Of a stretch of 64,000 bases of DNA, positions 278-63,370 are shown piece by piece. The notes beneath the pieces were generated by a model. That model was not told where the DNA came from, made no database searches, and worked only from the letters and a program-made list of their open reading frames with translations. The position numbers were made by a program, and so were the translations under genes. Source of the DNA: a phage; sequence record PZ452595.1, one strand, 5' to 3'. The first letter of the stretch is position 1. Every line of letters starts with the position of its first letter.

Positions 278-360
278 TTTATTCTCCTTTGTTTGTGTAA
301 GATAATACTATCACAAAGGAACCGTACTGTAAACAACTTTGTGCAATCTTTGGAAAATAA

Positions 361-383
361 AAAAGGACTCCCGAAGGAGTCCT
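361..383 (-). terminator. rho-independent terminator after the 30.9-like ORF
   Basis: Stem AGGACTCC / GGAGTCCT with UUCG loop (minus sense) followed by a U-run; same 23-nt element recurs at 53713..53739. Confidence 0.6.
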
Positions 384-387
384 CAAC

Positions 388-3338: not shown

Positions 3339-3859
3339 GTTGATCCCAGCTCCTTACTTTCAACGTTTTTAACTAATTTGACAGAAACTAATTCAGCATC
3401 TTGAGTAATCATTACCGGACCTTCTTCATACTCTTCAAGATATTCTAGAGCTTTCTTTTTAGCTTCTTCCTTCGTATCAGTTTGAGCATAGATATAAAAC
3501 ATACAACCAGTAATACCTACTACTTTCCACTTAATTTCTTTATCAGCTTTAATTTCAAATTTACTGACAGAATCATCTTTTTGAACTTCTTCGAAAAAAG
3601 AATATTCTAACATATAAGCAATTGAAAATAACGGGCTAACTTTATAGGATTCGCCCATTACATCAACAGCTTTATACCAGCAGTCATCAATTTCGCGTTT
3701 AATGCTAATAACATTTTTCGCAGGATCTATTTTTACTTTAAATGAATTTTCCCCAATAAACTGGGCAATTCGTTTATTAGCCCCGCAAGTTTCATTAAAA
3801 ATATCTTTATATCCAGTTTTAAAGCGATAAACCTTATCTTCTTCAAACCATTCGCTCAT
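3329..3859 (-). CDS. hypothetical protein (cd.x block)
   Basis: 176 aa ORF, ATG start; early promoter 3890..3919 directly upstream. Confidence 0.6.
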   Translation of the reverse strand: MSEWFEEDKVYRFKTGYKDIFNETCGANKRIAQFIGENSFKVKIDPAKNVISIKREIDDCWYKAVDVMGESYKVSPLFSIAYMLEYSFFEEVQKDDSVSKFEIKADKEIKWKVVGITGCMFYIYAQTDTKEEAKKKALEYLEEYEEGPVMITQDAELVSVKLVKNVESKELGSTCC

Positions 3860-3889: not shown

Positions 3890-3919
3890 ATAATATCACA
3901 ACTCTACCGTAAAGTAAAC
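3890..3919 (-). promoter_or_regulatory. T4-type early (sigma70) promoter
   Basis: Minus sense GTTTACT -35, 17-nt spacer, TGa-TATTAT extended -10; AT-rich upstream. Confidence 0.55.
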
Positions 3920-7210: not shown

Positions 7211-7240
7211 ACTATAACACAACACGAGGGACTTGTAAAC
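7211..7240 (-). promoter_or_regulatory. T4-type early promoter upstream of alc
   Basis: Minus sense GTTTACA, 17-nt spacer, TGt-TATAGT. Confidence 0.55.
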
Positions 7241-15434: not shown

Positions 15435-15464
15435 ATAGTATCACACTACTACCCTGTTGTAAAC
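15435..15464 (-). promoter_or_regulatory. T4-type early promoter
   Basis: Minus sense GTTTACA, 17-nt spacer, TGa-TACTAT; shares the CAGTAGTTGATAG leader motif with other sites. Confidence 0.55.
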
Positions 15465-15466
15465 AA

Positions 15467-15727
15467 TTATTTTTGAATTTTATCGAGCCACTTACCAAGC
15501 TTAATCATTTCTTTAGTAGCCTTTTCCATACTTCTGAACTTAACCAATAGAGGATAGGTATCGACACCCATAACTAAACTGGTTACAAGACTGTGTTCAC
15601 CCACAAGCCATAATGAATACGTTTGAATATCGAGCCCGTAATTTCTGTCTTTATGGACCCGTACACCCATCACTTCAAATTTCTCACTAGCTTTTTCTAC
15701 CGCATCCAGGAAATCATCTTTAGTCAT
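15467..15727 (-). CDS. hypothetical protein
   Basis: ATG at 15727 (86 aa, MTKDDFLDAVEK...); track start is TTG. Confidence 0.45.
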   Translation of the reverse strand: MTKDDFLDAVEKASEKFEVMGVRVHKDRNYGLDIQTYSLWLVGEHSLVTSLVMGVDTYPLLVKFRSMEKATKEMIKLGKWLDKIQK

Positions 15728-16434: not shown

Positions 16435-16463
16435 ATAGTACCATGGAAGGACAAGGATGTAAA
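16435..16463 (-). promoter_or_regulatory. T4-type early promoter
   Basis: Minus sense GTTTACA, 17-nt spacer, TGG-TACTAT; immediately downstream of the gene 32 terminator. Confidence 0.55.
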
Positions 16464-16491
16464 CAGTTTTGCGAAAAATTTTTAAAATAAA

Positions 16492-16514
16492 AAAGGGGAC
16501 CCTAGAGGTCCCCA
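16492..16514 (-). terminator. rho-independent terminator after gene 32
   Basis: Stem GGGGACC / GGTCCCC with 5-nt loop, followed in minus sense by UUUUUAUUUU. Confidence 0.65.
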
Positions 16515-16535: not shown

Positions 16536-17444
16536 TTAAAGGTCATTCAAAAGGTCATCCAGGTCCGTGTCATCAGCACTAGATGAACTGCCAGAGCTTG
16601 AGCTCATAAAATCATCTTCAGTTTTTGTATTGAAGTCATCAACATTGAATGCATCCAAATCATCAGCAACTTTATCAGCTTTCTTAGCAGCAGTTGCAGC
16701 GGCACCGCCCATCACAGCAGTTCCCATAACTTGACCGAATTTAGTGCTCAGTTCTTCAAATGATTTGAATTTATCTTTAGAAGTCATTTCAGAAAGGTCA
16801 ACCATTTGTTCGAACAGTTCTTTCTGGAAAGATTCATCATCAATGTTTGGAATCGCAGATTGATTCAGGAATTTAGATTCATCGTAGTTACTAAATCCAG
16901 AAACCTGTTTAACTTTCAGTACAAAGTTAGCACCTTCCCACGGACAAGTTACATCAACCGGAGTTTCACCCATTTCAACATCAACTGCAATCATTGCATT
17001 GATTTTATCCCAGATTTTCTTACCGAAACGGTATTTAAATACTTTACCTTCATTTTCTGGAGCAGCTGGGTCTTTTACAACAAGAATGTTAGCCCAGTAA
17101 GAAGTTTTACGTTTAACAAGACTGTACTCTTTATTGTCAGTGTTGTACAGATCATTTTTACTGATGTATTGACATACTGGGCAAGAATCGTAATCACCGT
17201 GGGTAGATGAACAGTTTTCAATATACCATTTACCATTTTTCTTGAAACCGTGATTTACAAGAATTGCGAATGGTGCTTGTTCATCATTTTTAGACGGAAG
17301 AAAACGAATTACTGCTTGACCGTTACCCGCATTGTCGAGTTTCAGTTTCCACTCGCCTTTATCTTCAGAAGAAAAACCACCTTTATTTCCAGCCAGTTTA
17401 GCCATTTGCGCAGCGAGTTCAGCAGTAGATTTACGTTTAAACAT
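16536..17444 (-). CDS. 32: single-stranded DNA binding protein gp32
   Basis: 302 aa, [24 protein letters not shown]...; zinc-binding residues and acidic C-terminal tail; matches T4 gp32. Confidence 0.96.
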
Positions 17445-17518
17445 TTTTATTTCCTTTTTAATTTAATTAACAGTTGGTGCTATGACGATGTATGACCTCA
17501 TAGCTGGTCAGTAAGATA

Positions 17519-17543
17519 ATTATAATCTATTTATAATAAGCAA
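17519..17543 (-). promoter_or_regulatory. gene 32 regulatory region: middle promoter with overlapping late promoter
   Basis: Minus sense tTGCTTa (MotA-box-like), 12 nt, TATAAT; a late-type TATAAATA lies inside the spacer (17528..17535); AU-rich leader follows. Confidence 0.5.
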
Positions 17544-18197
17544 TTAATACTTGCAAGATTTCACAGTTTCAATGAAAACATTTTTAGCTTTCTGTGAATC
17601 AATATTTAAAATTTTTCTATAAGCCTTTAACTTTATAGAATAATTATTCCAGACTAAATTATCAGTCTGTTCATCATGTTTATCAATTATATTTAAAAAC
17701 GAATCAAGCAAGATAAACGTCTCAAACGAAATTATGTTCGATTGCAGAAGTTTAAAAATATAACTTGACTGAACCTTTGGATTATATTCAAAGATTTCTT
17801 TAAAAGCAGAAACTTCAACTTTTTTACTAAAATAGTAAATATTGCGAATATCTTCTTCAAACTTAAATTTAATTTGCTTTAAGCGTCCGATATATTCACG
17901 ATAAAACACAAGTGCATCAGCGTCAGAGATGTCACCAATCCAAGCATCTTGGTTAGCAACCAAATTACTTATAAAGATTAAAGCAAGTTCCTTTAATTTA
18001 TATTTTTCTGATAACTTCTGGAAAAAATACTTATCCCTTCGCTTTTGATAAGCGGCATCAGACACCCGCATGCACCAATTATACTTAATTACATCATACT
18101 TTCCATTCATATGCTGTTTTATCATTAAGTATAATTTATAAACTGATTTACCATCAATGTATCTTTCACCACCAGCAGGCATGCGGAGTTTAATCAT
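17544..18197 (-). CDS. 59: gp59 helicase loader
   Basis: 217 aa, ATG start; same length and position (33-59-32) as T4 gp59. Confidence 0.9.
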   Translation of the reverse strand: MIKLRMPAGGERYIDGKSVYKLYLMIKQHMNGKYDVIKYNWCMRVSDAAYQKRRDKYFFQKLSEKYKLKELALIFISNLVANQDAWIGDISDADALVFYREYIGRLKQIKFKFEEDIRNIYYFSKKVEVSAFKEIFEYNPKVQSSYIFKLLQSNIISFETFILLDSFLNIIDKHDEQTDNLVWNNYSIKLKAYRKILNIDSQKAKNVFIETVKSCKY

Positions 18198-19705: not shown

Positions 19706-19766
19706 ATGAACCTCGTTCAATTAGTGAGATTTCTATTATATACCATCTAAATCTTAAAGTAAACAA

Positions 19767-25530: not shown

Positions 25531-28500
25531 ATGGCTACTTTAAAACAAATACAATTTAAAAGAAGCAAAACTGCAGGAGCACGTCCTGCCGCTTCAGTAT
25601 TAGCCGAAGGTGAATTGGCTATAAACTTAAAAGACCGTGTACTTTTTACTAAAGATGACCAAGGAAATATTATTGATCTGGGTTTTGCTAAAGGCGGTAG
25701 TATTGACGGGAATGTTATTCATACAGGCAATTATAACCAAACTGGCGATTATACTTTAAATGGTGTCTTCACTCAGACTGGTAATTTTAATTTAACTGGT
25801 ATTGCTCGAGTAACTCGCGATATTATTGCCGCTGGGCAGATTATGACTGAAGGCGGAGAACTTATTACAAAAAGTTCAGGTACAGCGCATGTTCGTTTTT
25901 TCGATAACAATAGTCGCGAACGCGGAATCATTTATGCCCCGGCTAATGATGGTTTAACTACACAAGTACTTAATATCAGGGTTCAAGACTACGCCGCTGG
26001 TAGCGAAAGCACTTATGCATTTTCAGGCAGTGGACTATTTACTTCACCTGAAGTATCAGCATGGAAATCTATTTCGTCTCCACAAATTCTGACCGACAAA
26101 GTTATTACAAATGGGAAGAAGACGGGAGATTATGACATTTATTCTATGGCAGACAACGTTCCATTGTCTGAAAGCACTACTGCTATTAATCATCTCCGTG
26201 TTATGCGCAATGCTGTAGGCGCTGGTGTATTCCATGAAGTTAAAGATAATGATGGAATAACTTGGTATACTGGAGATGGCTTAGACACTTATCTTTGGTC
26301 GTTTACCTGGACCGGTGGATTGAAAGCAGGCCATTCTATTTCTGTTGGTACTCCTGGTGGCAATAAAGGATACTCTGAATTAGGGACTGCTTCAATTTCT
26401 CTTGGCGATAATGATACCGGGCTAAAATGGCATCAGGACGGATATTTCTATACAGTAAACAACGGAACAAGAACTTTCATCTATGGTCCAGGAGAAACGC
26501 AAAGCCTTAGAAAAATGGTTATGGCTTATTCTCCAGATGGGCTTCTTATGACAACGCCACCGACAGAAAACTATGCTTTGGCTACTGTTGTTACTTACCA
26601 TGATAATAACGCATACGGTGACGGTCAAACTCTTTTAGGATATTATCAAGGCGGTAACTATCATCATTATTTTCGCGGTAAGGGTACTACAAACATTAAT
26701 ACTCACGGCGGTTTGTTAGTTACTCCTGGTAATATTGACGTTATTGGTGGTTCTGTTAATATCGATGGTAGAAATAATGCTTCTACACTGATGTTTAGAG
26801 GTAACACAACTGGTAGTAGTTCAGTTGATAATATGACAATTTCCGTTTGGGGCAATACGTTTACTAATCCTAGTGTAGGTAATCGTAAAAACGTCATGGA
26901 AATTTCTGATGCAACTAGCTGGATGAGTTATATTCAAAGACTTACAACAGGTGAAGTAGAAATGAACGTTAACGGTTCATTTGAATCATCTGGTGTTACT
27001 GCTGGAAATAGAGGAGTTCACACAACGGGCGAAATTTCATCTGGGGCTGTGAATGCGCTTCGTATTTGGAACGCAGATTATGGAGCTATTTTTAGACGTT
27101 CAGAAGGTAGTCTTCATATTATTCCAACTGCTTATGGTGAAGGTAAACATGGTGATATCGGCCCACTTCGCCCGTTTAGTATGGCTTTAGATACCGGTAA
27201 AGTTACTATTCCAGATTTACAATCAAGTTACAATACGTTCGCAGCGAACGGCTATATTAAATTTGTTGGTCATGGAGCGGGTGCCGGCGGTTATGACATT
27301 CAATATGCTCAAGCGGCTCCTATTTTCCAGGAAATTGATGATGATGCTGTAAGCAAATATTATCCTATTGTTAAACAGAAGTTTTTAAATGGTAAAGCCG
27401 TTTGGTCTTTAGGTACTGAAATTAATTCGGGTACATTCGTTATTCATCATCTGAAAGAAGATGGATCACAGGGCCATACATCAAGATTTAATGCTGATGG
27501 TACAGTTAATTTCCCCGATAACGTTCAGGTCGGCGGCGGTGAAGCTACTATTGCTCGCAATGGTAATATTTTCTCAGATATTTGGAAATCGTTTACTTCT
27601 GCGGGAGACACTACAAATATTCGCGATGCGATAGCTACTCGTGTTGCCAAAGAAGGCGATACGATGACCGGTAGGTTGACTTTATCTGCTGGAAATGATG
27701 CCCTTGTTTTAACTGCGGGCGCTGGCGCTTCATCGCACATCCGTAGTGATGTAGGTGGTACAAATAATTGGTATATAGGCAAAGGCGGCGGCGACAATGG
27801 TCTAGGTTTTTACAGTTACATTACACAAGGCGGTGTATACATAACAAATAACGGCGAAATAGCGCTTTCTCCTCAAGGACAAGGAACATTTAATTTTAAT
27901 AGAGACCGCCTTCATATAAACGGTACACAATGGACTGCGCACCAGGGTGGTGGCTGGGGAAACCAATGGAATCAAGAAGCTCCGATATTTATAGATTTTG
28001 GTAATGTTGGTAATGATAGTTATTATCCTATTATTAAAGGAAAATCTGGTATTACTAATGAAGGATACATATCTGGCGTTGATTTTGGTATGCGACGCAT
28101 TACTAATAACTGGGCGCAAGGTATTATTCGTGTAGGTAACCAGGAAAATGGTTCTGATCCACAAGCTATCTATGAATTTCATCACAATGGAGTTCTGTAT
28201 GTTCCTAACATGGTTAAAACTGGAGCAAGATTATCAGCTGGCGGTGGTGACCCGGTGTGGCAAGGCGCATGCGTTGTTATTGGTGATAATGATACTGGAT
28301 TAGTTCATGGTGGTGATGGACGAATTAATATGGTTGCAAATGGAGTTCATATTGCTTCATGGTCTTCATCTTATCATTCTCATCCAGGCCTTTGGGATTC
28401 AAACGGAGCTTTGTGGACAGAAGTTGGCAAAGCAATTATTTCTCATGGTCATTTAGTTCAGGCGAATGACAGCTATTCAACGTTTGTCCGTGATGTTTAT

Positions 28501-28842
28501 GTCCGCTCTGATATTCGTGTTAAAAAAGACCTCGTTAAATTTGAAAATGCTTCTGAAAAGCTTTCTAAAATTAACGGTTACACTTATATGCAGAAACGTG
28601 GAACTGACGAAGAAGGTAATCAGAAATGGGAACCTAACGCCGGTTTAATTGCTCAAGAAGTTCAAGCTATTTTACCAGAATTAGTTGAAGGCGACCCGGA
28701 TGGTGAAGCTTTACTTCGTTTGAACTATAACGGTGTAATTGGTTTAAATACAGCTGCAATCAATGAGCATACTGCAGAAATTGCGGAACTTAAATCAGAA
28801 ATTGAAGAACTTAAAGCATTAGTTAAATCATTGTTAAAATAA
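25531..28842 (+). CDS. 37: long tail fiber distal subunit gp37 with C-terminal intramolecular chaperone module
   Basis: 1103 aa, AAGAGGA upstream; the C-terminal ~110 aa begin at an S|DIRVKKDL motif and end in a coiled-coil heptad segment. Confidence 0.95.
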
Positions 28843-28847
28843 TAAGA

Positions 28848-28861
28848 GGGGCTTCGGCCCC
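28848..28861 (+). promoter_or_regulatory. intercistronic hairpin between genes 37 and 38
   Basis: GGGGC-UUCG-GCCCC immediately followed by the gene 38 SD GGAGG; no U-run. Confidence 0.4.
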
Positions 28862-28873
28862 TTGGAGGTTTAT

Positions 28874-29650
28874 ATGGCAGTAACAGGACCGTGGGTAGGA
28901 TCGTCTGCAGTAGTTAATACAGGACAAAATTGGATGGGTGGTGCCGCGCAGAGATTGAGAATGGGAATTCCGTTTTGGATGAGTAATATGATAGGTCGAT
29001 CTGTTGAAATAATTCACACGCTTGGAGCAGACCATAACTTCAATGGTCAATGGTTCCGAGATAGATGTTTTGAGGCAGGTAGTGCACCTATAGTGTTTAA
29101 TATCACTGGAGATTTAGTATCATATTCTAAAGATGTTCCTTTATTCTTCATGTATGGAGATACACCCAATGAATATGTTCAGTTGAATATACACGGCGTA
29201 ACGATGTATGGTCGTGGCGGTAATGGCGGTAGCAATAGTCCTGGCTCAGCTGGAGGTCATTGTATTCAAAACGATATTGGTGGGAGACTAAGAATTAATA
29301 ATGGTGGAGCTATTGCAGGCGGCGGTGGCGGCGGTGGCGGCGGATATTATTCTCCTTTTTCACAAATGAGATTGACCTTTGGCGGCGGCGGTGGGCGTCC
29401 GTTTGGTGCACCTGGCGGATCTATTGATATGCAATCAGGAGCGACTGGCGGTACTATTTCTGCACCTGGCTCAGGATCCGTGAATGGTATCTATAATGGT
29501 GGAAACGGTGGTGAAGTAGGTTCCGCGGGAGGTAGATGCAATATTCGCGGTCAAGGATCTGAATATAATGGCGGCGATGCTGGTTATGCCGTCATAGGGT
29601 CCGCTCCAACGTGGATAAATGTTGGAGCAATATATGGTCCAAGAGTATAA
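28874..29650 (+). CDS. 38: gp38 receptor-binding adhesin, T2-type with polyglycine motifs
   Basis: ATG at 28874 with GGAGG 5 nt upstream (258 aa; the track frame adds 4 codons from a TTG); C-terminal half has Gly runs ([20 protein letters not shown]) separating short variable segments. Confidence 0.88.
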
Positions 29651-29680
29651 TTTGAATAAATATCCTTAAAAGGAGGGTCT

Positions 29681-30622: not shown

Positions 30623-30775
30623 TCAATTAGTTGACTTTGTTATAATATCATCAGACGCTTGATTTGTAAACTGGTCTGTGTTATTTTCTTCAAAAATTTT
30701 TTCTACGAATTCCTTGAACGACTCACGTTCCTGAGCTACATTGTGCTCGATTACCTTTTCAAGATTATGACTCAT
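30623..30775 (-). CDS. small hypothetical protein (asiA.1 position), not in ORF track
   Basis: 50 aa hand-translated (MSHNLEKVIEHNVAQERESFKEF...); its ATG overlaps the arn stop codon (ATGA). Confidence 0.4.
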   Translation of the reverse strand: MSHNLEKVIEHNVAQERESFKEFVEKIFEENNTDQFTNQASDDIITKSTN

Positions 30776-33065: not shown

Positions 33066-33106
33066 TTTCTAATCTCCGTAATTCTGTATCAGTAGTTGAT
33101 AGTTGT

Positions 33107-33135
33107 ATAGTACCACAGTATGCTTTGGTTGTAAA
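33107..33135 (-). promoter_or_regulatory. T4-type early promoter upstream of motA
   Basis: Minus sense GTTTACA, 17-nt spacer, TGG-TACTAT, followed by the conserved CAACTACTGATAC leader. Confidence 0.6.
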
Positions 33136-33161
33136 CCGTTTTGTGAAAAATTTTTGAAATA

Positions 33162-33187
33162 AAAAAGGGAGAGCCGAGGCTCTCCCT
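33162..33187 (-). terminator. rho-independent terminator downstream of the 52 / motA.1 unit
   Basis: Stem GGGAGAGC / GCTCTCCC with 4-nt loop, then U-run in minus sense. Confidence 0.6.
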
Positions 33188-33191
33188 AAAA

Positions 33192-33341
33192 TTACTGCTC
33201 GAACGCGATAACTATCGTGATAACACGTTGAATTCCGAACGCAAGAAGACCTCCTGCTACGGCTGGAACAACGCCTAAACCCGCCAGTAAAATGCTACCG
33301 GATACTAATGCAGCGCTTGTAATACCAATGAATGGACTCAT
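33192..33341 (-). CDS. small membrane protein (motA.1 position), not in ORF track
   Basis: 49 aa hand-translated (MSPFIGITSAALVSGSILLAGLGVVPAVAGG...), hydrophobic; ATG overlaps the gene 52 stop (ATGA). Confidence 0.45.
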   Translation of the reverse strand: MSPFIGITSAALVSGSILLAGLGVVPAVAGGLLAFGIQRVITIVIAFEQ

Positions 33342-36396: not shown

Positions 36397-36425
36397 ATAG
36401 TACCACGGAAGAACAGTCTTGTAAA
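36397..36425 (-). promoter_or_regulatory. T4-type early promoter
   Basis: Minus sense GTTTACA, 17-nt spacer, TGG-TACTAT; leader CTATCAACTACGGAGGAACAGAAA-ATG nearly identical to the one at 63208..63231. Confidence 0.55.
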
Positions 36426-36684
36426 CAACTTTTTAAAAATATTCGTAATAAATGTGAATACCAACTACTACCGCTGAAACTTGCACAACCCACCACGCAC
36501 AAGCAATAAGTACAGAATTCAAAATTTTCATAATAACCTCATTACAAAAGTAAATGTTAAACAAATTACTGGAATACTAATTAACCAAACAAAACACCAC
36601 CACAGTGAACTCATAGTTCAATCTCAGCGATTTTCATTTTATTCTCCAAATCCGTATCAGTAGTTGTCAGTAGTTGATAGTTGT

Positions 36685-36713
36685 ATAGTACCACGGTCCT
36701 TGTGGTATGTAAA
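36685..36713 (-). promoter_or_regulatory. T4-type early promoter downstream of denB
   Basis: Minus sense GTTTACA, 17-nt spacer, TGG-TACTAT; tandem duplication of CAGTAGTTG in the leader. Confidence 0.5.
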
Positions 36714-36729
36714 CCATTTTGTGAAATTT

Positions 36730-40961: not shown

Positions 40962-40990
40962 ATTATACCACATCCTTGTGGTAAAGTAAA
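40962..40990 (-). promoter_or_regulatory. T4-type early promoter for the rIIA.1-rIIA-rIIB unit
   Basis: Minus sense GTTTACT, 17-nt spacer, TGG-TATAAT. Confidence 0.6.
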
Positions 40991-42808
40991 CTATTGGCTC
41001 ATCCATTCTTTACGAAGGTCAGCATTATCTCCCATGAGCATTTCAAAAAGCTCTTTCCAGTTCTCAGGAAGTTTAACAACATCATATACTGGGTTTTGAA
41101 TCATCTCACGATATTCAGATTTTTCCAAAGAGCCAAGTCCTTTAATATAACGGATGCTATGTTTAGGTAAAGCATCTTTAGCACTCTCATATTCAGCGAC
41201 TGTATAAAACCATTCTTGTTTTTTACCGACCTGAGCGATGATTACAGGAGTTTTGACGAAGCGAATTCGTCCTTGCTCAAACAATTCTGGCCAATTACTA
41301 AAAAATCCAAGCAGAGAAGGATAAATGCTTCCTAGACCATCATGGTCAGCATCAGTCATAATAGCAATATTATGATAATTCAAGTTTTCAGCTTTTTCAC
41401 CGAGAACTAATCCAGTGATTGCGCAAATATCAAATAGTTCTTTGTTTTTAAGCATATCTGCATAAGACATACCCCAGCTATTAAGAACTTTACCACGCAA
41501 TGGATAACCACCGTGAAGTTCTTTATCACGAACATCAATAAGATATCCGATAGCAGAATCACCCTCAGTCAAGAAAAGAGTAGTGTCAGCATCTTTACCA
41601 CAAAGATTCGCTTTGATATGTTTATGAACCTTAGCTTTAGAAGCCTTTTTAGCTGCTTTAGTTTCTGCTGCTTTTTCTGCCGCCAATTTACGAGCCAAAG
41701 CAGCTTCAATAATCGGCATTAGAATTGCTTCATTATTTAGAATAGCACGTGAAATCTTTTTAGCATCAAGCTGAATATGACTACGGATTTCACCAAATGG
41801 AGAAGTCAAACGCTCTTTAGTTTGAGAATCAAATCGCATGTTTTTCATATCACGAACAAACATAACGATTGTCAAACATTCTTTTACACGCGCTTTAGTT
41901 ACATCAATTTTGAACTTACGTTTGATTTGTGGAATAAGGTCTTCACAAATATCATCCATAACACAGTCAATGTGATGGCCACCATTCTTAGTGTGAATGT
42001 TATTGACGTATGTTAATTGACGAAAACCATCCGGTGAACGACCAACCGCAATAGAACAATTTTCTTGTTCTTGAACGATAGCATGCTCATCATATTGGCG
42101 TGCATATTTCTTAAAATTGCCCTGAACCTTTTTACCATTAAAGGTAAATTGAATATCAGGATAAACTACTGCAAGTGTCTGGAGACGATCTAGTGTAATG
42201 TCAAGATAAACTTGGGACAGCTCATTAGTTTCAAATGACATAAAATCAGGAATGAAAGTAACACGAGTTCCTTTCCATTTTCCAGGAATATCTTCCCATG
42301 ATTTATTTTCCATGCCATTTGAACAACGAACTACAATATTATTTTGACCATCACCAGTTTCACCGACAAACATCACAGAAAAAATGTTTGTCAAACTAGA
42401 ACCAACACCATTCATACCACCGGTGACGCGTTCTTTATCATCACCGAAGTTACCACCTGCTTTTGGAATAGTCCATGCAGCAACAGGACCAGGAATTTCT
42501 TCACCGGTAGGTGTTTTAACCATCGCTTGTGGAATACCACGACCGTTATCTTCAACTGTTACTTGATTGTTTTTAATAGTAACATTAATTTTATTTGCGA
42601 ATTTAAACTTAGTACGAATACCTTCATCTACTGAGTTATCGATAATTTCATCAATAAGCTTAACAAGACCAGGTACATACTGAACACTTTCCCATTTACC
42701 AAACAGAAAGCGCTCATGCATTTCATTAGCAGAAGAGCCGATGTACATGCCACTGCGCTTTTTGATATGTTCAATATCGCTCAGAATTTTAATTTCATTC
42801 TTAATCAT
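40991..42808 (-). CDS. 39: topoisomerase II large subunit, unsplit (39 + 60 in one frame)
   Basis: ATG at 42808 (605 aa); GHKL ATPase motifs (EIIDNSVDE, GRGIP) and Toprim region (…IAIMTDADHDG…) in one continuous frame; no gene 60 gap. Confidence 0.93.
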   Translation of the reverse strand: MIKNEIKILSDIEHIKKRSGMYIGSSANEMHERFLFGKWESVQYVPGLVKLIDEIIDNSVDEGIRTKFKFANKINVTIKNNQVTVEDNGRGIPQAMVKTPTGEEIPGPVAAWTIPKAGGNFGDDKERVTGGMNGVGSSLTNIFSVMFVGETGDGQNNIVVRCSNGMENKSWEDIPGKWKGTRVTFIPDFMSFETNELSQVYLDITLDRLQTLAVVYPDIQFTFNGKKVQGNFKKYARQYDEHAIVQEQENCSIAVGRSPDGFRQLTYVNNIHTKNGGHHIDCVMDDICEDLIPQIKRKFKIDVTKARVKECLTIVMFVRDMKNMRFDSQTKERLTSPFGEIRSHIQLDAKKISRAILNNEAILMPIIEAALARKLAAEKAAETKAAKKASKAKVHKHIKANLCGKDADTTLFLTEGDSAIGYLIDVRDKELHGGYPLRGKVLNSWGMSYADMLKNKELFDICAITGLVLGEKAENLNYHNIAIMTDADHDGLGSIYPSLLGFFSNWPELFEQGRIRFVKTPVIIAQVGKKQEWFYTVAEYESAKDALPKHSIRYIKGLGSLEKSEYREMIQNPVYDVVKLPENWKELFEMLMGDNADLRKEWMSQ

Positions 42809-44350: not shown

Positions 44351-44620
44351 TTAATTGAACATTGGAGCGATGCGTTTCAGAAGAGTAGCAGCACCTTTGG
44401 CGAATTTTACATCATGAAAAACAGTTTCTTCTTCCGTTACAACACGAGCTTTAATGTTTTCGCAATCCCAATTTTTGCGAACAATCTTCAAAAGCTGCAA
44501 TAAATCTTTACATTCAGCAATATCGATAACATATCCACGAGAATCTTCCATTATCGCACGATAACCATAAGCCATACCATAATCATTGAAAGATTGCTCG
44601 ATGATAATTAAGTTTTCCAT
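44351..44620 (-). CDS. hypothetical protein
   Basis: ATG at 44620 preceded by GGAG (89 aa); track start is TTG. Confidence 0.5.
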   Translation of the reverse strand: MENLIIIEQSFNDYGMAYGYRAIMEDSRGYVIDIAECKDLLQLLKIVRKNWDCENIKARVVTEEETVFHDVKFAKGAATLLKRIAPMFN

Positions 44621-44663
44621 TTTATTCTCCAAGTTATTTTCTGTATCAGTAGTTGATATTGAT

Positions 44664-44692
44664 ATAGTACCATAATCAACTACTGATGTATA
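44664..44692 (-). promoter_or_regulatory. variant early promoter
   Basis: TGG-TACTAT extended -10 with a weak -35 (TATACA); -10 sits inside a 13-nt perfect inverted repeat ATCAGTAGTTGAT / ATCAACTACTGAT. Confidence 0.4.
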
Positions 44693-44717
44693 TAGTTTTA
44701 TGAAAAAATTTTAAACT

Positions 44718-45253: not shown

Positions 45254-45282
45254 ATTATACTCTGGTCCCAAGAGTTTGTAAA
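45254..45282 (-). promoter_or_regulatory. T4-type early promoter upstream of motB
   Basis: Minus sense GTTTACA, 17-nt spacer, TATAAT. Confidence 0.55.
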
Positions 45283-45285
45283 CTA

Positions 45286-45830: not shown

Positions 45831-46343
45831 TTATCTCATTTCAATAAAATCTACAAGTTCAGCATGGGATTTACGGAACATTACTTGATGCCCACCAATG
45901 ATAACTTGGTCATCTGGCACTTCATAAATCGCAATGTACATTCCACGATCTTTTAAGTCTTCACGCTCTTCTCGGGTGAACCATCTCATCATATCATATT
46001 CAGTAGCGAAAGCAAAATGATATAATGCAATAAACCACAATGGAATATAATTTTCAATTCGTGAATAATCTTTATTCCATTTAGTTTTAATAGCATCATT
46101 AGCATTTTCAACTAATAACTTATCATCGTGCGGAATAGGAATACTTTCATGACTTTCATAATTATCGCTATGATGATGAAATGACGATGAATTAATACCG
46201 CAAAATTTTAGCCAAGTTCGAGTTTTCATAGAATCAAATCCACGATAAGGAGTTGATTGAACGCATAACTCTTGCCTAATTTTCATTATACCACTATCAT
46301 CATTTAATGCGCTAAACGATGATTCAACACGATAAATTTTCAT
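45831..46343 (-). CDS. hypothetical protein
   Basis: ATG at 46343 preceded by GAGGA (170 aa); track start is TTG inside the promoter. Confidence 0.5.
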   Translation of the reverse strand: MKIYRVESSFSALNDDSGIMKIRQELCVQSTPYRGFDSMKTRTWLKFCGINSSSFHHHSDNYESHESIPIPHDDKLLVENANDAIKTKWNKDYSRIENYIPLWFIALYHFAFATEYDMMRWFTREEREDLKDRGMYIAIYEVPDDQVIIGGHQVMFRKSHAELVDFIEMR

Positions 46344-46370: not shown

Positions 46371-46399
46371 ATAATACCACAACTGACCGAGGAAGTAAA
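46371..46399 (-). promoter_or_regulatory. T4-type early promoter
   Basis: Minus sense GTTTACT, 17-nt spacer, TGG-TATTAT. Confidence 0.55.
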
Positions 46400-46406
46400 C
46401 AACTTT

Positions 46407-50235: not shown

Positions 50236-50264
50236 ACTATAACATTTTTACTTTAACTTGTAAA
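50236..50264 (-). promoter_or_regulatory. T4-type early promoter upstream of srd
   Basis: Minus sense GTTTACA, 17-nt spacer, TGt-TATAGT. Confidence 0.55.
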
Positions 50265-50322
50265 CAACTTTATGTAAAAATGCTTTAAAACTTTCATGGT
50301 ATAATGAATCTAAGTCCTTCCA

Positions 50323-51571: not shown

Positions 51572-51600
51572 ATCATATCATCGTTAGAAAGGAAAGTAAA
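51572..51600 (-). promoter_or_regulatory. T4-type early promoter upstream of modB
   Basis: Minus sense GTTTACT, 17-nt spacer, TGa-TATGAT. Confidence 0.55.
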
Positions 51601-51612
51601 CAACTTTTTGAA

Positions 51613-53647: not shown

Positions 53648-53712
53648 AGTACTCTCCTCTATAAGATAATTCTATTATACCATACTCATTTTGGAAAGTA
53701 AACCGTTTAAAT

Positions 53713-53739
53713 GAAAAAAAGGACTCCCGAAGGAGTCCT
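53713..53739 (-). terminator. rho-independent terminator after soc
   Basis: AGGACUCC-UUCG-GGAGUCCU followed by UUUUUUU in minus sense; identical to the element at 361..383. Confidence 0.65.
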
Positions 53740-53744
53740 TGAAT

Positions 53745-56977: not shown

Positions 56978-57037
56978 GATAATCTCCTCAGTAGTTTATG
57001 TTTATATAGTATCTCAATTTCCAACAAAAGTAAACAG

Positions 57038-57508: not shown

Positions 57509-57537
57509 ACTATACCATAGTCTCGTCAGCTTGTAAA
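57509..57537 (-). promoter_or_regulatory. T4-type early promoter upstream of dmd
   Basis: Minus sense GTTTACA, 17-nt spacer, TGG-TATAGT. Confidence 0.55.
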
Positions 57538-58965
57538 CTAAAATTTTAATTCATTCGCCAAAGCATCTAACTGAGCTCGAGTGGATTCATTTCTTTGATA
57601 GCGATTCTGCTCAGCCTGAATCTGTTGTGAACCTGCTACTTCGTTCACTTCAGTTGGAGTAGAATCTTGTTCAATTTCTACCCATTTCTGATTTCCCTTT
57701 TGAACACCCATCAAAAACTTATTCCACTTATTCTTATCACCATATCGTGATTTGATTTGCTTAATGAGTTGTTGTTCAGCAGCTGCTAGCTCCTCGGTTT
57801 CAATGACCGCAAGCATAAAATCAGCTGTCGCTGGAAGACCAGCAGATTCTGCGATATCACTCATGTTAACATCAGAAGAATCCCAAGCTTGTTTGCCGAC
57901 CTGCGCTGCAGTCCAAAGAACAGTTTCGGTTTCAACAGCCAAAGCACGCAATTCCTCTGCAATAGCTTTAACAGTTGTGTAACTATTTTCTGAATAAACT
58001 CTAATACGGCAAGATTTACAAATACCAAGATAGTCGACAATAATGATTGTTGGAACAAAATTCTTCTTGAGCTTCAATTCGTTTAAAAGTGATCGAAATG
58101 TATTAGCATCTGCTCCACCAGTAGGATACTGTTTAACGATTAAACGCCCGAGAGTAGATTTCTCGCGCCATTTTTCCATTTTTCCTTTATACTCAGCGTA
58201 AGAAATATGCCCATCATCAATATCATCAAGAGAAACATCAAGCATATTAGCATCAATACGCTTAGCACAGACTTCTTCTGCCATTTCCATGGAAATGTAA
58301 AGAACGTTATGACCAAGCTGCAAATAATCTGCTGCCAATGAACACAATCCTAATGACTTACCAACGTTAACGCCAGCCATTAAAACGTTCAGTGTTCCAG
58401 TCTCAGCTCCGCCTTTAGTAATTTTGTTTAGAATTCTGAGTTTAAATGGAACCTTACGAGCTTTATTCATATAAGATAGCCAACGTGCTTCGTAGTCATC
58501 CATCCAGTCATGACCAACGTAGCTATCAAATGAAATTGATAATGCTTGCCGCATAATGTCAGGAATAGCACCAACATCCGGCATTTTCTTATTTCGTTTT
58601 TCCGGAGGAAGCTCAGCATTAGTTTGAATTTCGATTATTTTAGATGTAGCATTAAACATCGCCCTTTGCTGAACATATTTTTCTGTTTCTTTTACTAACC
58701 AGCTGTGGTCTTCCGGAGAATCAGCCAGTTTTGAAATAAGTGTTTTTACACCAGAATATTCTGTTTCAGTAAATGAACTATTTTCTAATGCAACATTTAA
58801 CGCATTAATAGATGGAACGCTATGATACTCATTGACATGAGATTTAATTAATTTGAATGTATTTTTAGCTGGACCACTTTCAAAATATTCTGAATCCATA
58901 TATGGCCAAACTTTTGAAAAATAAGCTTGATCAAATATGAGATGAGAAAGAATAATTTCTACCAC
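57538..58965 (-). CDS. 41: replicative DNA helicase gp41 (DnaB family)
   Basis: 475 aa; Walker A GVNVGKS; start codon is GTG preceded by AAGGAG with no nearby in-frame ATG; same length as T4 gp41. Confidence 0.94.
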   Translation of the reverse strand: MVEIILSHLIFDQAYFSKVWPYMDSEYFESGPAKNTFKLIKSHVNEYHSVPSINALNVALENSSFTETEYSGVKTLISKLADSPEDHSWLVKETEKYVQQRAMFNATSKIIEIQTNAELPPEKRNKKMPDVGAIPDIMRQALSISFDSYVGHDWMDDYEARWLSYMNKARKVPFKLRILNKITKGGAETGTLNVLMAGVNVGKSLGLCSLAADYLQLGHNVLYISMEMAEEVCAKRIDANMLDVSLDDIDDGHISYAEYKGKMEKWREKSTLGRLIVKQYPTGGADANTFRSLLNELKLKKNFVPTIIIVDYLGICKSCRIRVYSENSYTTVKAIAEELRALAVETETVLWTAAQVGKQAWDSSDVNMSDIAESAGLPATADFMLAVIETEELAAAEQQLIKQIKSRYGDKNKWNKFLMGVQKGNQKWVEIEQDSTPTEVNEVAGSQQIQAEQNRYQRNESTRAQLDALANELKF

Positions 58966-59319: not shown

Positions 59320-60493
59320 TAAATTCTTCCATATCACTTAACTGATCTAGATCAGTTTCTAAATCAGCTGCTGATTTACTTTTACTTTCTGGAGATTTAA
59401 ATTTTTCAACCTTTGAGTTAATCAATTCATCAACTTCAGCTTCAACAATTTCATTACTATCAATAGCACCTAACTGATAAGCACGTTTAATAGCATCTCG
59501 GAATGGTTGATGCTTAAATAAAGGACCCCAGAATGTAGTGCAGTTGGTATCTTTTGCACGCCAAGATTTTTCTTCGCGAATCATCTCGCCGGTTTCTTCG
59601 TCAAGAAATTCACGAGCATACCAACCGTTCTTAGGTTTTACCACGAATCCTAATTCTAGAGCCATATCTAACAATCCAGAATAAGGATCGATACCACCGT
59701 CAAATTTAACATCAATAAAGAATTTACTTTTTTCTTTAACGGTACGAGATTTTTCTACATTTAGAACAAATTGATACCCCTGAAGATCAGAACCATCTTT
59801 AATCTGGCGTTTACCGATAATGAATACAGTATCAGCCGAATACATTACGCCTGTACCACCTGTCATCACGGTTTTACTAAACATTTCAATTGTTTCAATT
59901 GTATGGTTAACCGCAACACATGGAATATTTTTAATGCTAAAATAAGGAGTAACAATACGGAATAATGACTTCAGTGATTTAGCACGAGTCATATCTGCCA
60001 CAGATTTTTCATTCAAGGCATCTTCCGTTTCTTTCTTAGAAGCCATATTACCGATTGAGTCGATGAATACAATAACCTTTTCACCACGCTCAATAGCTTC
60101 AAGCTGATTCACCATATCAATTTTCAGCTGTTCAACTGACTGAATTGGCGTATGAATTACTCGTTCCGGGTCAACTCCCATGGAACGTAAATAAGCTGGA
60201 GTAATACCAAATTCGCTATCATAGAATAGACAAACCGCGTCAGGATATTTGTTCAAATATGCCGCAACCATAGTCAAAGACATATTTGATTTAAAGTGTT
60301 TAGAAGGCCCTGCGAAAATAGTTAAACCAGACTGCATACCACCATCAATCGCACCAGAAATAGCGATATTAAGCATTGGGATTTTTGTACGGATTACATC
60401 CTTTTCATTAAAGAATTTAGATGTAGTCAGTTCAGCAGTCATTTTAGAAGTGGAAGCTTTAATCAAACGGGATTTTAAATCTGCAATAGACAT
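59312..60493 (-). CDS. uvsX: UvsX recombinase (RecA-like)
   Basis: 393 aa; Walker A GPSKHFKS; acidic C-terminal tail; length and position match T4 UvsX. Confidence 0.94.
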   Translation of the reverse strand: MSIADLKSRLIKASTSKMTAELTTSKFFNEKDVIRTKIPMLNIAISGAIDGGMQSGLTIFAGPSKHFKSNMSLTMVAAYLNKYPDAVCLFYDSEFGITPAYLRSMGVDPERVIHTPIQSVEQLKIDMVNQLEAIERGEKVIVFIDSIGNMASKKETEDALNEKSVADMTRAKSLKSLFRIVTPYFSIKNIPCVAVNHTIETIEMFSKTVMTGGTGVMYSADTVFIIGKRQIKDGSDLQGYQFVLNVEKSRTVKEKSKFFIDVKFDGGIDPYSGLLDMALELGFVVKPKNGWYAREFLDEETGEMIREEKSWRAKDTNCTTFWGPLFKHQPFRDAIKRAYQLGAIDSNEIVEAEVDELINSKVEKFKSPESKSKSAADLETDLDQLSDMEEFNE

Positions 60494-60570
60494 TCATTTT
60501 TTCCATAGGCATCATTATATTTTCCTCACTGGTTAAAGATAGAGTAATTATAACACAATAAATTTAGGCA

Positions 60571-61413
60571 TTAATCAACTGCTATTGGATGAATAGCATT
60601 AAACTTATGAAATGCTTCTGATTTTTCTTTACGCGAAACACACATGCGAAGAACCTTTAATGGCTCATCTTCTTCACCCAACGATTTTCGTTTTTCAATA
60701 TTAGAAGTTTTCCAACGAGCTTGTTCTGGAAACTCTCTATTGATTTGCTCAAGCGCTCTATTATGTTTAGAATTACTACGAATTGAACTGCACCCGCCAG
60801 GAGCTTGTGCTTTTCCAGATACAACCAGATATTTGAACAAGGCCAAATGCGGATAACCTTGATTAATTAAATTGAGAAATGCATACATATCTTCGCATAA
60901 ATCAATTTTTCCATACCCAATTTGTTCTGTCGTAAGTTTTCCGAGGTCATACCATGTATTCGTGAATCCATATGAATTTTCACGATAATTACCCCAAGAT
61001 GAAGTAATTTTAAAAATAGGTAGACGAGCATGGCCATGATAATACCCGCAATCCATGGCATCTTCAACGTATTGAATCAATTCATAGAACTGTTCACGAG
61101 TTAATTGATTAACTTTATCTACGCAGCGACGATCATCTCTCTTTCGCATTGAACTCATACGAATAGTAGTATCATCGTCAATCATCCAGATTCGTTGACC
61201 TGCATACATATCAGTAATAGCTTTACGAGTACCGGCAATTCCATTTACATCATCAGGAATAGTTATAATTTTAGCTCTAGACCCATAGGCATCACAATAA
61301 GCTTTTTCTTCGTGTTCACGCACTACAATATGCGGTTCATAATCAGTCGGAAACATATCAAGGGCAGAAACTGCCCCAACACGCTGATAACTTGGAATTA
61401 CGAATTGAATCAT
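60571..61413 (-). CDS. HMC-DNA glycosyltransferase, GT-A type (candidate beta-alpha-glucosyltransferase)
   Basis: ATG at 61413 overlapping the gene 42 stop (ATGA), 280 aa; DxD motif in WMIDDDTT; sits at the uvsX-42 locus but is shorter than T4 beta-gt. Confidence 0.65.
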   Translation of the reverse strand: MIQFVIPSYQRVGAVSALDMFPTDYEPHIVVREHEEKAYCDAYGSRAKIITIPDDVNGIAGTRKAITDMYAGQRIWMIDDDTTIRMSSMRKRDDRRCVDKVNQLTREQFYELIQYVEDAMDCGYYHGHARLPIFKITSSWGNYRENSYGFTNTWYDLGKLTTEQIGYGKIDLCEDMYAFLNLINQGYPHLALFKYLVVSGKAQAPGGCSSIRSNSKHNRALEQINREFPEQARWKTSNIEKRKSLGEEDEPLKVLRMCVSRKEKSEAFHKFNAIHPIAVD

Positions 61414-63235: not shown

Positions 63236-63264
63236 ATAGTACCACAGAGGAACAGTCTTGTAAA
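63236..63264 (-). promoter_or_regulatory. T4-type early promoter
   Basis: Minus sense GTTTACA, 17-nt spacer, TGG-TACTAT; leader matches the one at 36397..36425. Confidence 0.55.
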
Positions 63265-63348
63265 CAGTTTTGTGAAAAAATTTTTAGGGAATTCTAAAGG
63301 TCCAGAATCATCTGTTTTTCATAAGTATAGATTTATATTACTTGTATG

Positions 63349-63370
63349 AAAAAGGGACCCGGAGGTCCCT
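63349..63370 (-). terminator. rho-independent terminator after gene 43
   Basis: GGGACC-UCCG-GGUCCC followed by UUUUUC in minus sense, directly after the gp43 stop. Confidence 0.6.

Follow-up and report, generated by a model that had tools for sequence, protein, structure and literature searches.

Between the stop codon of motA.1 and the start codon of motA, at positions 33107 to 33187 of the 64,000-nt stretch of phage DNA analysed here (the window), a GC hairpin with a T-run lies directly before hexamers that resemble a -35 and a -10 element. A sequence-only reading had reported the promoter-like motif at 15 or more minus-strand sites, several of them with a conserved leader and several directly after a hairpin, and had taken them for repeated early promoter and terminator cassettes. 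The question raised by the locus is what these repeats are, how many there are, and what the hairpins beside them may do. The window comes from a Tequatrovirus (T4-like) genome, and its motA region shares 98% identity with Yersinia phage PST and about 96% with T4. In the direction of transcription, the elements predicted around P(motA) are as follows.

33194..33192, minus strand: stop codon of motA.1
33166..33187, minus strand: predicted intrinsic terminator after motA.1, AGGGAGAGC-CUCG-GCUCUCCCU then UUUUUU
33137..33165, minus strand: A/T-rich UP-element region of P(motA)
33107..33136, minus strand: core of P(motA), with GTTTAC at 33136..33131, TGG at 33115..33113 and TACTAT at 33112..33107
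33066..33100, minus strand: motA leader, with the start-region motif ATCAACTACTG and a GGAG Shine-Dalgarno sequence (SD) at 33077..33074

Directly after the TACTAT -10 of P(motA) comes ACAACT and then ATCAACTACTG; the predicted +1 for motA is the A at 33100, and the motA ATG is at 33065. The sequence AAAAATTTTTCACAAAAC in the UP region is also found at sites 63236, 44664, 16435 and 36685 (sites are named by the first coordinate of their core).

A composite promoter motif confined to one strand

A position weight matrix (PWM) search, one of the checks suggested beforehand, returned 20 sites of the form GTTTAC(A/T)-N14-TGn-TAyWAT that score at least 16 bits, all on the minus strand, and nothing on the plus strand of the window at 12 bits or more. 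All 15 sites listed earlier proved real, and five others (305, 19735, 30642, 53674 and 57006) had been missed. The predicted early promoters other than P(motA) are listed below.

63236..63265, minus strand: upstream of imm.1, orthologue of T4 Pe26.4
57509..57538, minus strand: upstream of dmd (T4 Pe20.3 region)
57006..57035, minus strand: upstream of sp (T4 Pe19.8 region)
53674..53703, minus strand: upstream of mrh.2
51572..51601, minus strand: upstream of modB
50236..50265, minus strand: upstream of srd
46371..46400, minus strand: upstream of motB.2
45254..45283, minus strand: upstream of motB
44664..44693, minus strand: upstream of an 89-aa ORF that precedes cef; -35 degraded (ATATAC)
40962..40991, minus strand: upstream of rIIA.1
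36685..36714, minus strand: upstream of ndd.6
36397..36426, minus strand: upstream of ndd.4
30642..30671, minus strand: upstream of asiA, within the asiA.1 coding region
19735..19764, minus strand: upstream of rnh, orthologue of T4 Pe148.6
16435..16464, minus strand: upstream of frd.3
15435..15464, minus strand: upstream of frd.1
7211..7240, minus strand: upstream of alc
3890..3919, minus strand: T4 Pe133295
305..334, minus strand: upstream of 30.8

The -35 hexamer is exactly GTTTAC in 19 of the 20 sites, and the one degenerate form, at site 44664, is also degraded in T4 (T4 6601). TGn is present in 17/20 sites (TGG in 10/20) and absent at 19735, 45254 and 57006. The 27 nt upstream, where a UP element (-40 to -60) would lie, contain 75% A+T vs 64% in the whole window and have an A-tract/T-tract pattern in common, and the predicted start is an A at 14 of the 20 sites.

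In a window of this A+T content the sites could be chance sigma-70-like matches, and a scan with the generic sigma-70 consensus did return matches at chance level (36 found vs 40.9 expected), so that the case rests on the specific T4-type composite motif. The minus strand, however, carries 19 copies of GTTTAC-N18-TAnnnT and the plus strand none at that spacing, against an expectation of 0.34 and a maximum of 3 under a first-order Markov model (200 runs), which amounts to an approximately 56-fold excess, and when spacings of 8-30 from GTTTAC were scanned a lone sharp peak appeared at 18. The Markov expectation and the PWM scan together rule out chance matches. Nor are the sites MotA-dependent middle promoters, since a MotA box (TGCTT) lies within 30 nt upstream of the -10 hexamer at 0/20 sites, while MotA boxes are present at separate sites elsewhere in the window, where they match known T4 middle promoters. 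Taken together, the chance and middle-promoter readings retain next to no probability. No Rfam family was found in the window.

Assignment to the early promoters of T4-like phages

In T4, the positions that correspond to the 20 sites all precede early genes (motA, asiA, dmd, sp, modB, srd, motB, alc, rnh and others), with which the sites are co-oriented. The promoter that a note in the T4 record names Pe133295 is site 3890; no other promoter feature was found in the RefSeq/GenBank T4 records. A comparison with T4 early promoters had also been proposed, and it showed that the motif is the published PST/T4 consensus TTTACW-N17-TAYWAT of PeSLs, early promoters joined to stem-loops, for which a link to indels has been described as well (PMC2839356, PMC4122927). 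T4 early promoters are reported to be UP/-35/TGn/-10 promoters with extra conserved positions (PMC2988021). The absence of transcription starts 6-8 nt downstream of the -10 elements had been named as grounds for refutation; for Pe148.6 and Pe26.4, orthologous in T4 to sites 19735 and 63236 respectively, the published starts (150,727 and 27,044) lie exactly 7 nt past the -10 hexamers that we located (150,734 and 27,051), and primer extension has shown T4 Pe148.6 to be active at 1 min (PMC6024815). RB69 and JS98 have this promoter class too, with an equal strand bias and the start motif CTATCAAC.

The T4-like identity, the positions before early genes, the named T4 Pe orthologues and the PeSL consensus all support the initial reading of the repeats as early promoters. 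The sites are almost certainly early promoters (Pe) of a T4-like phage that depend on sigma-70, often joined to a stem-loop as PeSL. Their motif, that of a strong early promoter well known in T4-like phages, has been published before and is already known biology. Promoter activity in the present phage is predicted from orthology, and the +1 positions, RegB cleavage and termination would follow what the T4 literature describes. Host RNA polymerase with sigma-70 would recognise a composite 'uber' promoter (UP, -35 (G)TTTAC(A/T), a 17-nt spacer with TGn at its end, -10 TAyWAT). Transcripts would begin 7 nt further on, in most cases with the A of CT/ATCAAC, immediately after infection and without phage proteins.

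Two conserved parts of the leader

The conserved leader consists of a start-region motif, CT/ATCAACTAC, which is common to several T-even genera, and a GGAG Shine-Dalgarno sequence. GGAG is found in 12/20 leaders vs a background of 0.097 per 60 nt, and eight leaders have GAGG or AGGA without GGAG. The RegB/S1 cleavage consensus is GG/AGRAYARAA (PMC3014915), and its four full matches in the window all lie in these leaders on the minus strand, one of them being GGAGAATAAAATG in the leader of site 36685. The first part of the leader would act as a conserved start, or initially transcribed, motif; the second, a GGAG-type SD followed by an A-rich stretch, would be a target of the RegB/S1 endonuclease, which would later inactivate the early mRNAs.

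A conserved leader had been claimed before, and CAACTACGGAGGAACAnAAAATG is indeed common to sites 63236 and 36397. The further claim that CAGTAGTTGATAG occurs at six sites is correct if one mismatch is allowed, while the exact 13-mer is carried by only three leaders (15418, 33090 and 36668, with one mismatch in 36380, 63219 and 44647); matches with up to two mismatches number 12 vs 1.43 expected.

Terminators, stem-loops and possible cassette exchange

In addition to the terminator after motA.1, four predicted terminators lie close upstream of these promoters; each entry ends with the site concerned and the distance from its -35.

63353..63370, minus strand: terminator after gene 43, AGGGACC-UCCG-GGUCCCU-UUUU; site 63236, 87 nt
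53719..53740, minus strand: terminator after soc, AAGGACUCC-UUCG-GGAGUCCUU-UUUUU; site 53674, 15 nt
16495..16513, minus strand: terminator after gene 32, GGGGACCU-CUA-GGGUCCCC-UUUUUU; site 16435, 30 nt
363..384, minus strand: terminator after 30.9, GAGGACUCC-UUCG-GGAGUCCUU-UUUU; site 305, 28 nt

A GC hairpin with a T-run thus stands 15-30 nt upstream of the -35 at four sites (33187, 53740, 16513 and 384), and 5/7 of the minus-strand terminators of the window lie within 90 nt upstream of a -35. The loops are UUCG (twice), CUCG, CUA and UCCG, with no GNRA loop among the terminators near the 20 promoters. What had been described as UUCG or GNRA hairpin terminators directly before several promoters therefore stands for the four GC hairpins and the two UUCG loops and fails for GNRA; likewise, 'promoter plus terminator cassette' suits the 4-5 of 20 promoters with a canonical upstream terminator, a minority, and is not apt as a general description. 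Counting both kinds of stem-loop, promoter and stem-loop are combined at 12-13/20 sites (4-5 upstream terminators and 8 hairpins enclosing the -10), and about eight sites have neither. The stem-loop of a PeSL would accordingly be of two types: an intrinsic terminator just upstream, at which transcripts from the gene before it stop, and a hairpin that has its 5' arm in the untranscribed spacer or discriminator.

Because their sequence is shared, the cassettes would serve as recombination joints at which ORFs are swapped in and out. Junctions of ORF insertion or replacement relative to T4 fall inside the leader or SD at three sites: at 63236 a new 83-aa ORF is spliced in past the leader motif CTATCAACTAC, at 15435 the flanking ORFs differ between T4 and the present phage with the leader junction directly after CCCTATCAA, and at 3890 a 176-aa ORF is inserted at the SD. 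Pfam searches with the four ORFs at cassette junctions, of which T4 lacks three and has the fourth with an internal deletion, gave no match. Junction and cassette coincide in about 4-5 of 13 cases vs about 3 expected at random gene boundaries, a rough estimate by which cassettes have no clear excess of indel junctions over that expected from an intergenic position alone. The notion that all indels relative to T4 are cassette-mediated was rejected, as most are homing-endonuclease or intron differences.

The similarity of the cassettes, leader included, might mainly reflect duplication or gene conversion of a mobile module (PeSL mini-circle exchange) and not selection at each position. A subfamily of seven cassettes is 65-80% identical over -62..+20, where the median is 45%, BLAST gives cross-hits between cassettes, ORF swaps relative to T4 have their junctions exactly at the shared leader motif, and PeSL-mediated exchange between PST and T4 has been published for this same ndd region (PMC4122927). 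On the other hand, CT/ATCAAC keeps an equal register in RB69 and JS98, whose intergenic DNA has otherwise diverged, which argues for functional constraint; the other 13 promoters have only the functional elements in common; and the difference upstream of cef is a plain microhomology deletion and no cassette exchange. Duplication as the main source of the similarity is, in our judgement, unlikely.

Stem-loops spanning promoter and leader

At 8/20 sites, spacer and leader can form a duplex of -14 kcal/mol or lower, vs 0.8% of 4000 geometry-matched random positions (binomial P ~2e-12). These positions were used as the null in place of a swapped spacer/leader control, which gave a Mann-Whitney p of 0.08 and is confounded by the shared leader sequence. 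Fold z-scores of the hairpins range from -3.3 to -5.7. With the predicted +1, the SD falls within the 3' arm at about six sites (63236, 36397, 46371, 7211, 51572 and 53674): the spacer pairs with the SD at 63236 (-20.8 kcal/mol), spacer CTGTTCTTCCGTGG pairs with CTACGGAGGAACAG at 36397 before ndd.4 (-23.3 kcal/mol), a spacer/SD hairpin of 17 bp forms at 46371 before motB.2 (-23 kcal/mol), a long one forms at 7211 before alc (-21.6 kcal/mol), and at 51572 before modB both SD and AUG are paired with the -10 and discriminator. SD masking at -12 kcal/mol or lower was predicted for 5/15 promoter-proximal starts vs 5/66 other starts (Fisher p = 0.016). Four hairpins leave the SD uncovered: that at 57509 lies around the -10, those at 45254 (motB; GGGACC...GGTCCC) and 3890 (GGTAGAGTT / AGCTCTACC) enclose the -10, and at 44664 the spacer is an inverted copy of the leader motif (ATCAGTAGTTGAT / ATCAACTACTGAT).

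Single-protein searches with Alc and Dmd returned relatives 95-100% identical and useless for covariation, and RB69, JS98 and other genera were used instead. The pairing upstream of motB.2 covaries over five genera with unrelated arms (CCUCGGUCAG/CUACUGAGG, CUCCUCUGGUU/AACCAGAGGAG, CUCCUCAUG/CAUGAGGAG, UAUGCCUUCCUA/UAGGAGGGUAUA and AUGAUGACCUCCU/AGGAGGUCAUAU); this was taken from per-sequence folds, since the stems vary in length from clade to clade and the arms fell out of register when the motB.2 promoters were aligned with MAFFT. The modB design, [-10 + discriminator] paired with [SD + AUG], is found in three genera including RB69 and JS98 with differing sequences, JS98 has a different anti-SD spacer before alc (TCTCCTCAT / ATGAGGAGA), and the hairpin of site 3890 has two double-sided compensatory pairs in JS98.

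The PeSL authors proposed that such stem-loops are attenuators or terminators of upstream transcription, and they may alternatively stabilise the 3' ends of upstream mRNA. One phi1 PeSL stem-loop cut downstream lacZ about as much as rrnB T1 (PMC2839356), although that assay cannot tell termination from translational masking. The -10-enclosing hairpins are located at the 3' end of the preceding gene, and those that do not cover an SD need some other role. The terminator sites 33107, 53674, 16435 and 305 have no strong spacer/leader hairpin and most hairpin sites have no terminator, a largely mutual exclusion which suggests that the two are alternatives, but it is not significant (hairpins at 0/4 terminator sites vs 8/16 others, Fisher p ~0.1 by estimate). 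No U-run follows the -10-enclosing hairpins, which are thus not canonical intrinsic terminators, and attenuation leaves the anti-SD composition and the SD-specific covariation unexplained. We consider a role in attenuation or 3'-end stabilisation rather doubtful.

Another reading, which would add to the early-promoter explanation and not replace it, is that the -10-enclosing stem-loops are translational gates on read-through RNA. An anti-SD 5' arm in the spacer or discriminator would sit upstream of the +1, and the hairpin would be possible only on RNA arriving from upstream; such read-through RNA would fold and hide the SD/AUG and the RegB GGAG, while RNA from the gene's own promoter, which would not contain the arm, would be translated, and synthesis of the downstream protein would be limited to the immediate-early burst. 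The eight strong spacer/leader duplexes, the position of the SD in the 3' arm, the enrichment of SD masking near promoters and the covariation at motB.2 and modB are consistent with such a gate, and an equivalent logic is established for T4 e, soc, 49 and I-TevI, with a late promoter inside the hairpin (PMC3014915). Against it stand the four sites with an uncovered SD, the 12/20 promoters without such a hairpin, the T4 orthologue of 63236, which retains the spacer and has lost the complementary leader, the absence of the alc hairpin in RB69, and the confounded result of the swapped-partner control. Translational gating is a possible function of these stem-loops, to which we give somewhat less than an even chance. 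The more specific proposal, that a subset of T-even early promoters has a conserved anti-SD tract by which the gene is translatable only from its own immediate-early transcript and is silenced, with its GGAG shielded, on read-through (delayed-early/middle) RNA, is put forward tentatively and with more doubt than belief, and the predicted SD-masking subclass may be regarded as a modest lead.

Significance

T4 early promoters are the means by which host RNA polymerase is seized within seconds of infection. For the most part our finding bears out textbook T4 biology. The short burst of early expression is shaped by the terminators, RegB sites and stem-loops linked to the promoters, and shared cassettes help to shuffle small accessory genes among related phages. 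Since most deposited T4-like records have no annotated promoters, the 20-site map provides a better annotation of the present genome. The covarying anti-SD hairpin subclass is the sole forward-looking element; if its proposed function is true, it would mirror, in the early phase, the switches known from the late genes e, soc, 49 and I-TevI, would mean that the 'SL' of many PeSLs has a specific role other than termination, and would explain how some genes stay strictly immediate-early despite extensive read-through transcription.

Comparison with known systems

The T4 early promoters (Pe148.6, Pe26.4, Pe133295 and that of motA) have UP, GTTTAC, a 17-nt spacer, TGn and TAyWAT as in the present phage, and they match the present sites in early-gene position and orientation, with a +1 at 7 nt observed in the T4 orthologues. 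Relative to T4 and PST the sites are about 95-98% identical and nothing essential differs, apart from a few downstream ORFs. The reported RegB target in T4 motA mRNA is GGAG (PMC2988021), the T4 motA SD is a GGAG with documented RegB cleavage, and the motA SD of the present phage is also GGAG. More generally, the GGAG SD of RegB/S1 sites in T4 early mRNAs is matched in sequence by 12/20 leaders here and the full consensus by four.

The PeSL elements of Arbiol et al. 2010 (PMC2839356) and Comeau et al. 2014 (PMC4122927), strong early promoters with a stem-loop that are intergenic and near small ORFs of unknown function, are also found in the present phage, with an identical PST/T4 consensus and with ORF-swap junctions in the cassettes, including the ndd region of the 2014 paper. 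In that paper the PST/T4 stem-loops lie just upstream of the promoter, whereas here 8/20 enclose the -10, an arrangement commonest in RB49/phi1; experimental reports of termination or attenuation by PeSL stem-loops and of mini-circle formation concern only phi1/RB49 (PMC2839356). The papers searched gave no description of an early-promoter form of the hairpin that sequesters a ribosome-binding site. In T4 e, soc, 49 and I-TevI, the 5' arm lies before the proximal start and the 3' arm over the SD/AUG, a geometry shared by about six of the present sites; there, however, the internal promoter is late and masking delays expression until late, whereas at the present sites the promoter is early and the predicted effect is confinement to the early burst.

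Early promoters on the minus strand

The composite motif GTTTAC-N18-TAnnnT occurred 19 times on the minus strand of the window and not once on the plus strand at N18 spacing (0.34 sites expected under a first-order Markov model), and scanning spacings from 8 to 30 gave a lone sharp peak at 18, equivalent to 17 nt when the -35 is taken as TTTACW. With a position weight matrix built from the sites, 20 positions on the minus strand scored ≥16 bits and nothing on the plus strand reached 12 bits; the plus-strand block at ~20-30 kb (late tail-fibre genes) contained no early-promoter site. A generic sigma-70 consensus scan remained at chance level (36 found vs 40.9 expected), so the signal resides in the specific composite motif. 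All 15 promoters proposed in the sequence-only reading were borne out, 44664 with a degraded -35, and five had been overlooked (305, 19735, 30642, 53674 and 57006). Placed on the T4 genome, all 20 sites fall upstream of an early gene and share its orientation.

Early-promoter sites (coordinate at which the -10 hexamer ends), strand and downstream gene
63236, minus, imm.1
57509, minus, dmd
57006, minus, sp
53674, minus, mrh.2
51572, minus, modB
50236, minus, srd
46371, minus, motB.2
45254, minus, motB
44664, minus, ORF preceding cef
40962, minus, rIIA.1
36685, minus, ndd.6
36397, minus, ndd.4
33107, minus, motA
30642, minus, asiA
19735, minus, rnh
16435, minus, frd.3
15435, minus, frd.1
7211, minus, alc
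3890, minus, cd.2 (promoter named Pe133295 in the T4 record)
305, minus, 30.8

In T4, the Pe148.6 transcript starts at map unit 150,727 and is active at 1 min (primer extension and RNA-seq), and that of Pe26.4 starts at 27,044 (PMC6024815). These are the T4 orthologues of 19735 and 63236, respectively. We located the corresponding -10 hexamer ends at 150,734 and 27,051, which places the start exactly 7 nt downstream in both orthologues, within the 6-8 nt predicted beforehand, and we infer that the sites are probably active as promoters in the present phage.

Genome context

By sequence comparison, the window is a Tequatrovirus genome segment, colinear with T4 130-168.9 kb and then T4 0-27.8 kb, and its motA region shares 98% identity with Yersinia phage PST and ~96% with T4. 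Of ~21 homology breaks relative to T4, the majority were homing-endonuclease or intron differences. The T4 homing endonucleases and introns of this region were all absent (nrdB intron/I-TevIII, nrdB.1 and mobE, td intron/I-TevI, segG, the mobA/60.1 insert between genes 39 and 60, and segF; junctions 9361/9364, 10037/10093, 13219/13220, 17507/17543, 41326/41391 and 54028/54074). At 54632/54653, nothing corresponded to the region around T4 dam (DNA adenine methyltransferase; T4 16826-17724), with ~20 bp standing in place of ~900 bp of T4. At 60481-61428, T4 segA and beta-glucosyltransferase (~1.9 kb) were swapped for a 282-aa ORF (60571-61419, minus) matching PHROG 842 (beta-glucosyl-HMC-alpha-glucosyltransferase, E = 1e-88) and Pfam TAGT, which suggests that DNA is glucosylated in the T2/T6 (gentiobiosyl) manner and not in that of T4. 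The distal tail-fibre region (25697-29656; gene 37 3' part and gene 38) gave no DNA-level alignment with T4, as expected of a host-range variable region.

Predicted terminators, leaders and candidate RegB sites

The motA cassette is arranged as follows.

Features of the motA cassette
just 5' of the hairpin, minus, motA.1 stop codon
33187..33166, minus, terminator hairpin (9-bp GC stem, CUCG loop), then T-run
between T-run and -35, minus, A/T-rich stretch
33136..33131, minus, -35 GTTTAC
33115..33113, minus, TGG at spacer end
33112..33107, minus, -10 TACTAT
directly 3' of the -10, minus, ACAACT then ATCAACTACTG...
33077..33074, minus, Shine-Dalgarno (SD) GGAG
33065, minus, ATG of the 211-aa MotA ORF, which starts MSKVTYIIKASND

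In an unbiased scan of the window, the minus strand had just seven terminator-like hairpins. The four that follow motA.1, soc, gene 32 and 30.9 precede a -35 by 15-30 nt, and the one that follows gene 43 does so by 87 nt. The terminator-then-promoter arrangement described previously is thus real and holds for a quarter of the promoters; of its proposed UUCG or GNRA loops, UUCG occurred twice and GNRA in none of the five, the others being CUCG, CUA and UCCG.

The leader comprises two parts, the SD and a motif around +1 (CT, then ATCAACTAC), the latter exact or near-exact in seven cassettes (63236, 36397, 33107, 36685, 44664, 15435 and 16435) that share 65-80% identity over -62 to +20 (all-pairs median 45%). 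The 13-mer leader earlier reported at six sites was exact in three and carried one mismatch in the other three. Since RB69 and JS98 promoters keep CTATCAAC in the same register 3' of the -10, it is part of a T-even promoter/initial-transcribed consensus and not merely a recent duplication. GGAG was present in 12/20 leaders (background 0.097 per 60 nt), and GGAGRAYARAA, the strong cleavage consensus of the RegB/S1 endonuclease system (PMC3014915), had four matches in the whole window, every one inside an early-promoter leader; RegB cleavage at the T4 motA SD is documented (PMC2988021).

Three homology breaks relative to T4 fell inside cassettes. At 63236, an 83-aa ORF is joined in after ...CTATCAACTAC, carrying in a GGAGGAACA leader identical to that of 36397; the frd.1 cassette (15435) has different ORFs on either side, with the junction at CCCTATCAA; and at 3890 the SD is the insertion point of a 176-aa ORF. 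The cef-upstream difference was rejected as such an event, being a 200-bp microhomology deletion in T4. These junctions are consistent with the published model of modular shuffling rather than a demonstration of it, because a rough estimate gave no excess over random gene-boundary placement. Four small cassette-adjoining ORFs differ from T4 (62956-63207, 3329-3859, 44351-44620 and 15466-15727, minus): 44351-44620 is internally deleted in T4 and the other three are missing there; none had a Pfam match, and the PHROG families to which they belong are all of unknown function.

Hairpins pairing spacer with leader

At 8/20 sites the 18-nt -35/-10 spacer was complementary to the leader, with predicted duplexes of -14 to -23 kcal/mol holding the -10 in the loop, whereas 0.8% of 4000 random same-geometry positions reached -14 kcal/mol (binomial P ~2e-12). 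The 3' arm covered the SD at about six promoters (63236, 36397, 46371, 7211, 51572 and 53674); at 51572 the 5' arm was the -10 and discriminator, not the spacer. SD masking by upstream sequence (≤ -12 kcal/mol) was found at 5/15 promoter-proximal starts vs 5/66 other starts (Fisher p = 0.016).

The predicted structure covaries between genera. Upstream of motB.2, phages of the T4 group pair CCUCGGUCAG/CUACUGAGG, RB69 and JK45 pair CUCCUCUGGUU/AACCAGAGGAG, and Dhakaviruses pair CUCCUCAUG/CAUGAGGAG. The anti-SD tract of Pectobacterium phage PM2 and of Edwardsiella phage PEi20 is shifted into the -10/discriminator. Two double-sided compensatory pairs occur in the Pe133295 hairpin of JS98, and the modB design, pairing -10 and discriminator with SD and AUG, recurs in three genera with differing sequences. 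MotB.2 itself (45831-46343) matches its counterpart in Escherichia phage 121/2022-2B (OR958571) at 100% identity and that in T4 at only ~61%; homology to T4 ends 31 nt into the gene, and the upstream promoter and hairpin are ~98% conserved. At the cef-upstream promoter (44647-44685), the spacer repeats the common leader motif in inverted form (CAGTAGTTGAT pairing with ATCAACTACTG), so the shared leader supplies the 3' arm of a predicted 13-bp hairpin that encloses the -10; T4 has the same inverted-copy hairpin.

With its 5' arm located 5' of +1, the hairpin is possible solely on RNA read through from upstream. We hypothesize that on such RNA it would mask the ribosome-binding and RegB sites, and that the gene's own early transcript would escape masking. 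The authors describing PeSL cassettes (early promoter plus stem-loop) read the stem-loops as attenuators or terminators. This may hold here as well, but the spacer/leader hairpins have no U-run. Weighing against masking, four hairpin sites leave the SD untouched, 12 promoters have no hairpin, and the alc hairpin is absent in RB69. In a limited literature search, we came across no account of the SD being masked at early promoters.

Comparison with known promoter classes

No MotA box was found at the 20 early-promoter sites. Separate minus-strand middle-promoter-like sites with a MotA box were present elsewhere (wwTGCTTnA-N11-13-TAnnnT; -10 ends 54627, 38663, 22019, 18881 and 1615). Of these, 54627 and 38663 match the known T4 middle promoters P56/69 and PrIIB2, respectively, and 22019 lies antisense within gene 34, near T4 oriG. 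T4 early promoters are described as 'uber' UP/-35/TGn/-10 promoters with further conserved positions (Hinton review, PMC2988021), which our in-register alignment of the 20 sites resembles in its A+T-rich upstream region (75% over 27 nt), TGn (17/20) and A at 7 nt past the -10 (14/20). The PST/T4 consensus of the PeSL cassette, a composite of strong early promoter and stem-loop, is TTTACW-N17-TAYWAT (Arbiol et al. 2010, PMC2839356; Comeau et al. 2014, PMC4122927), the very motif of the sequence-only reading, whose early-promoter interpretation is supported by this consensus and by T4 orthology. The sites represent already known biology, namely the well-characterised early promoters of T4 in PeSL form, here in a new isolate from a phage group that is itself very well known. 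The subclass with covarying anti-SD hairpins offers a modest lead that is open to experiment: the same hairpin logic is established for T4 e, soc, 49 and I-TevI (PMC3014915), where the internal promoter is late, whereas at the sites described here it is early.
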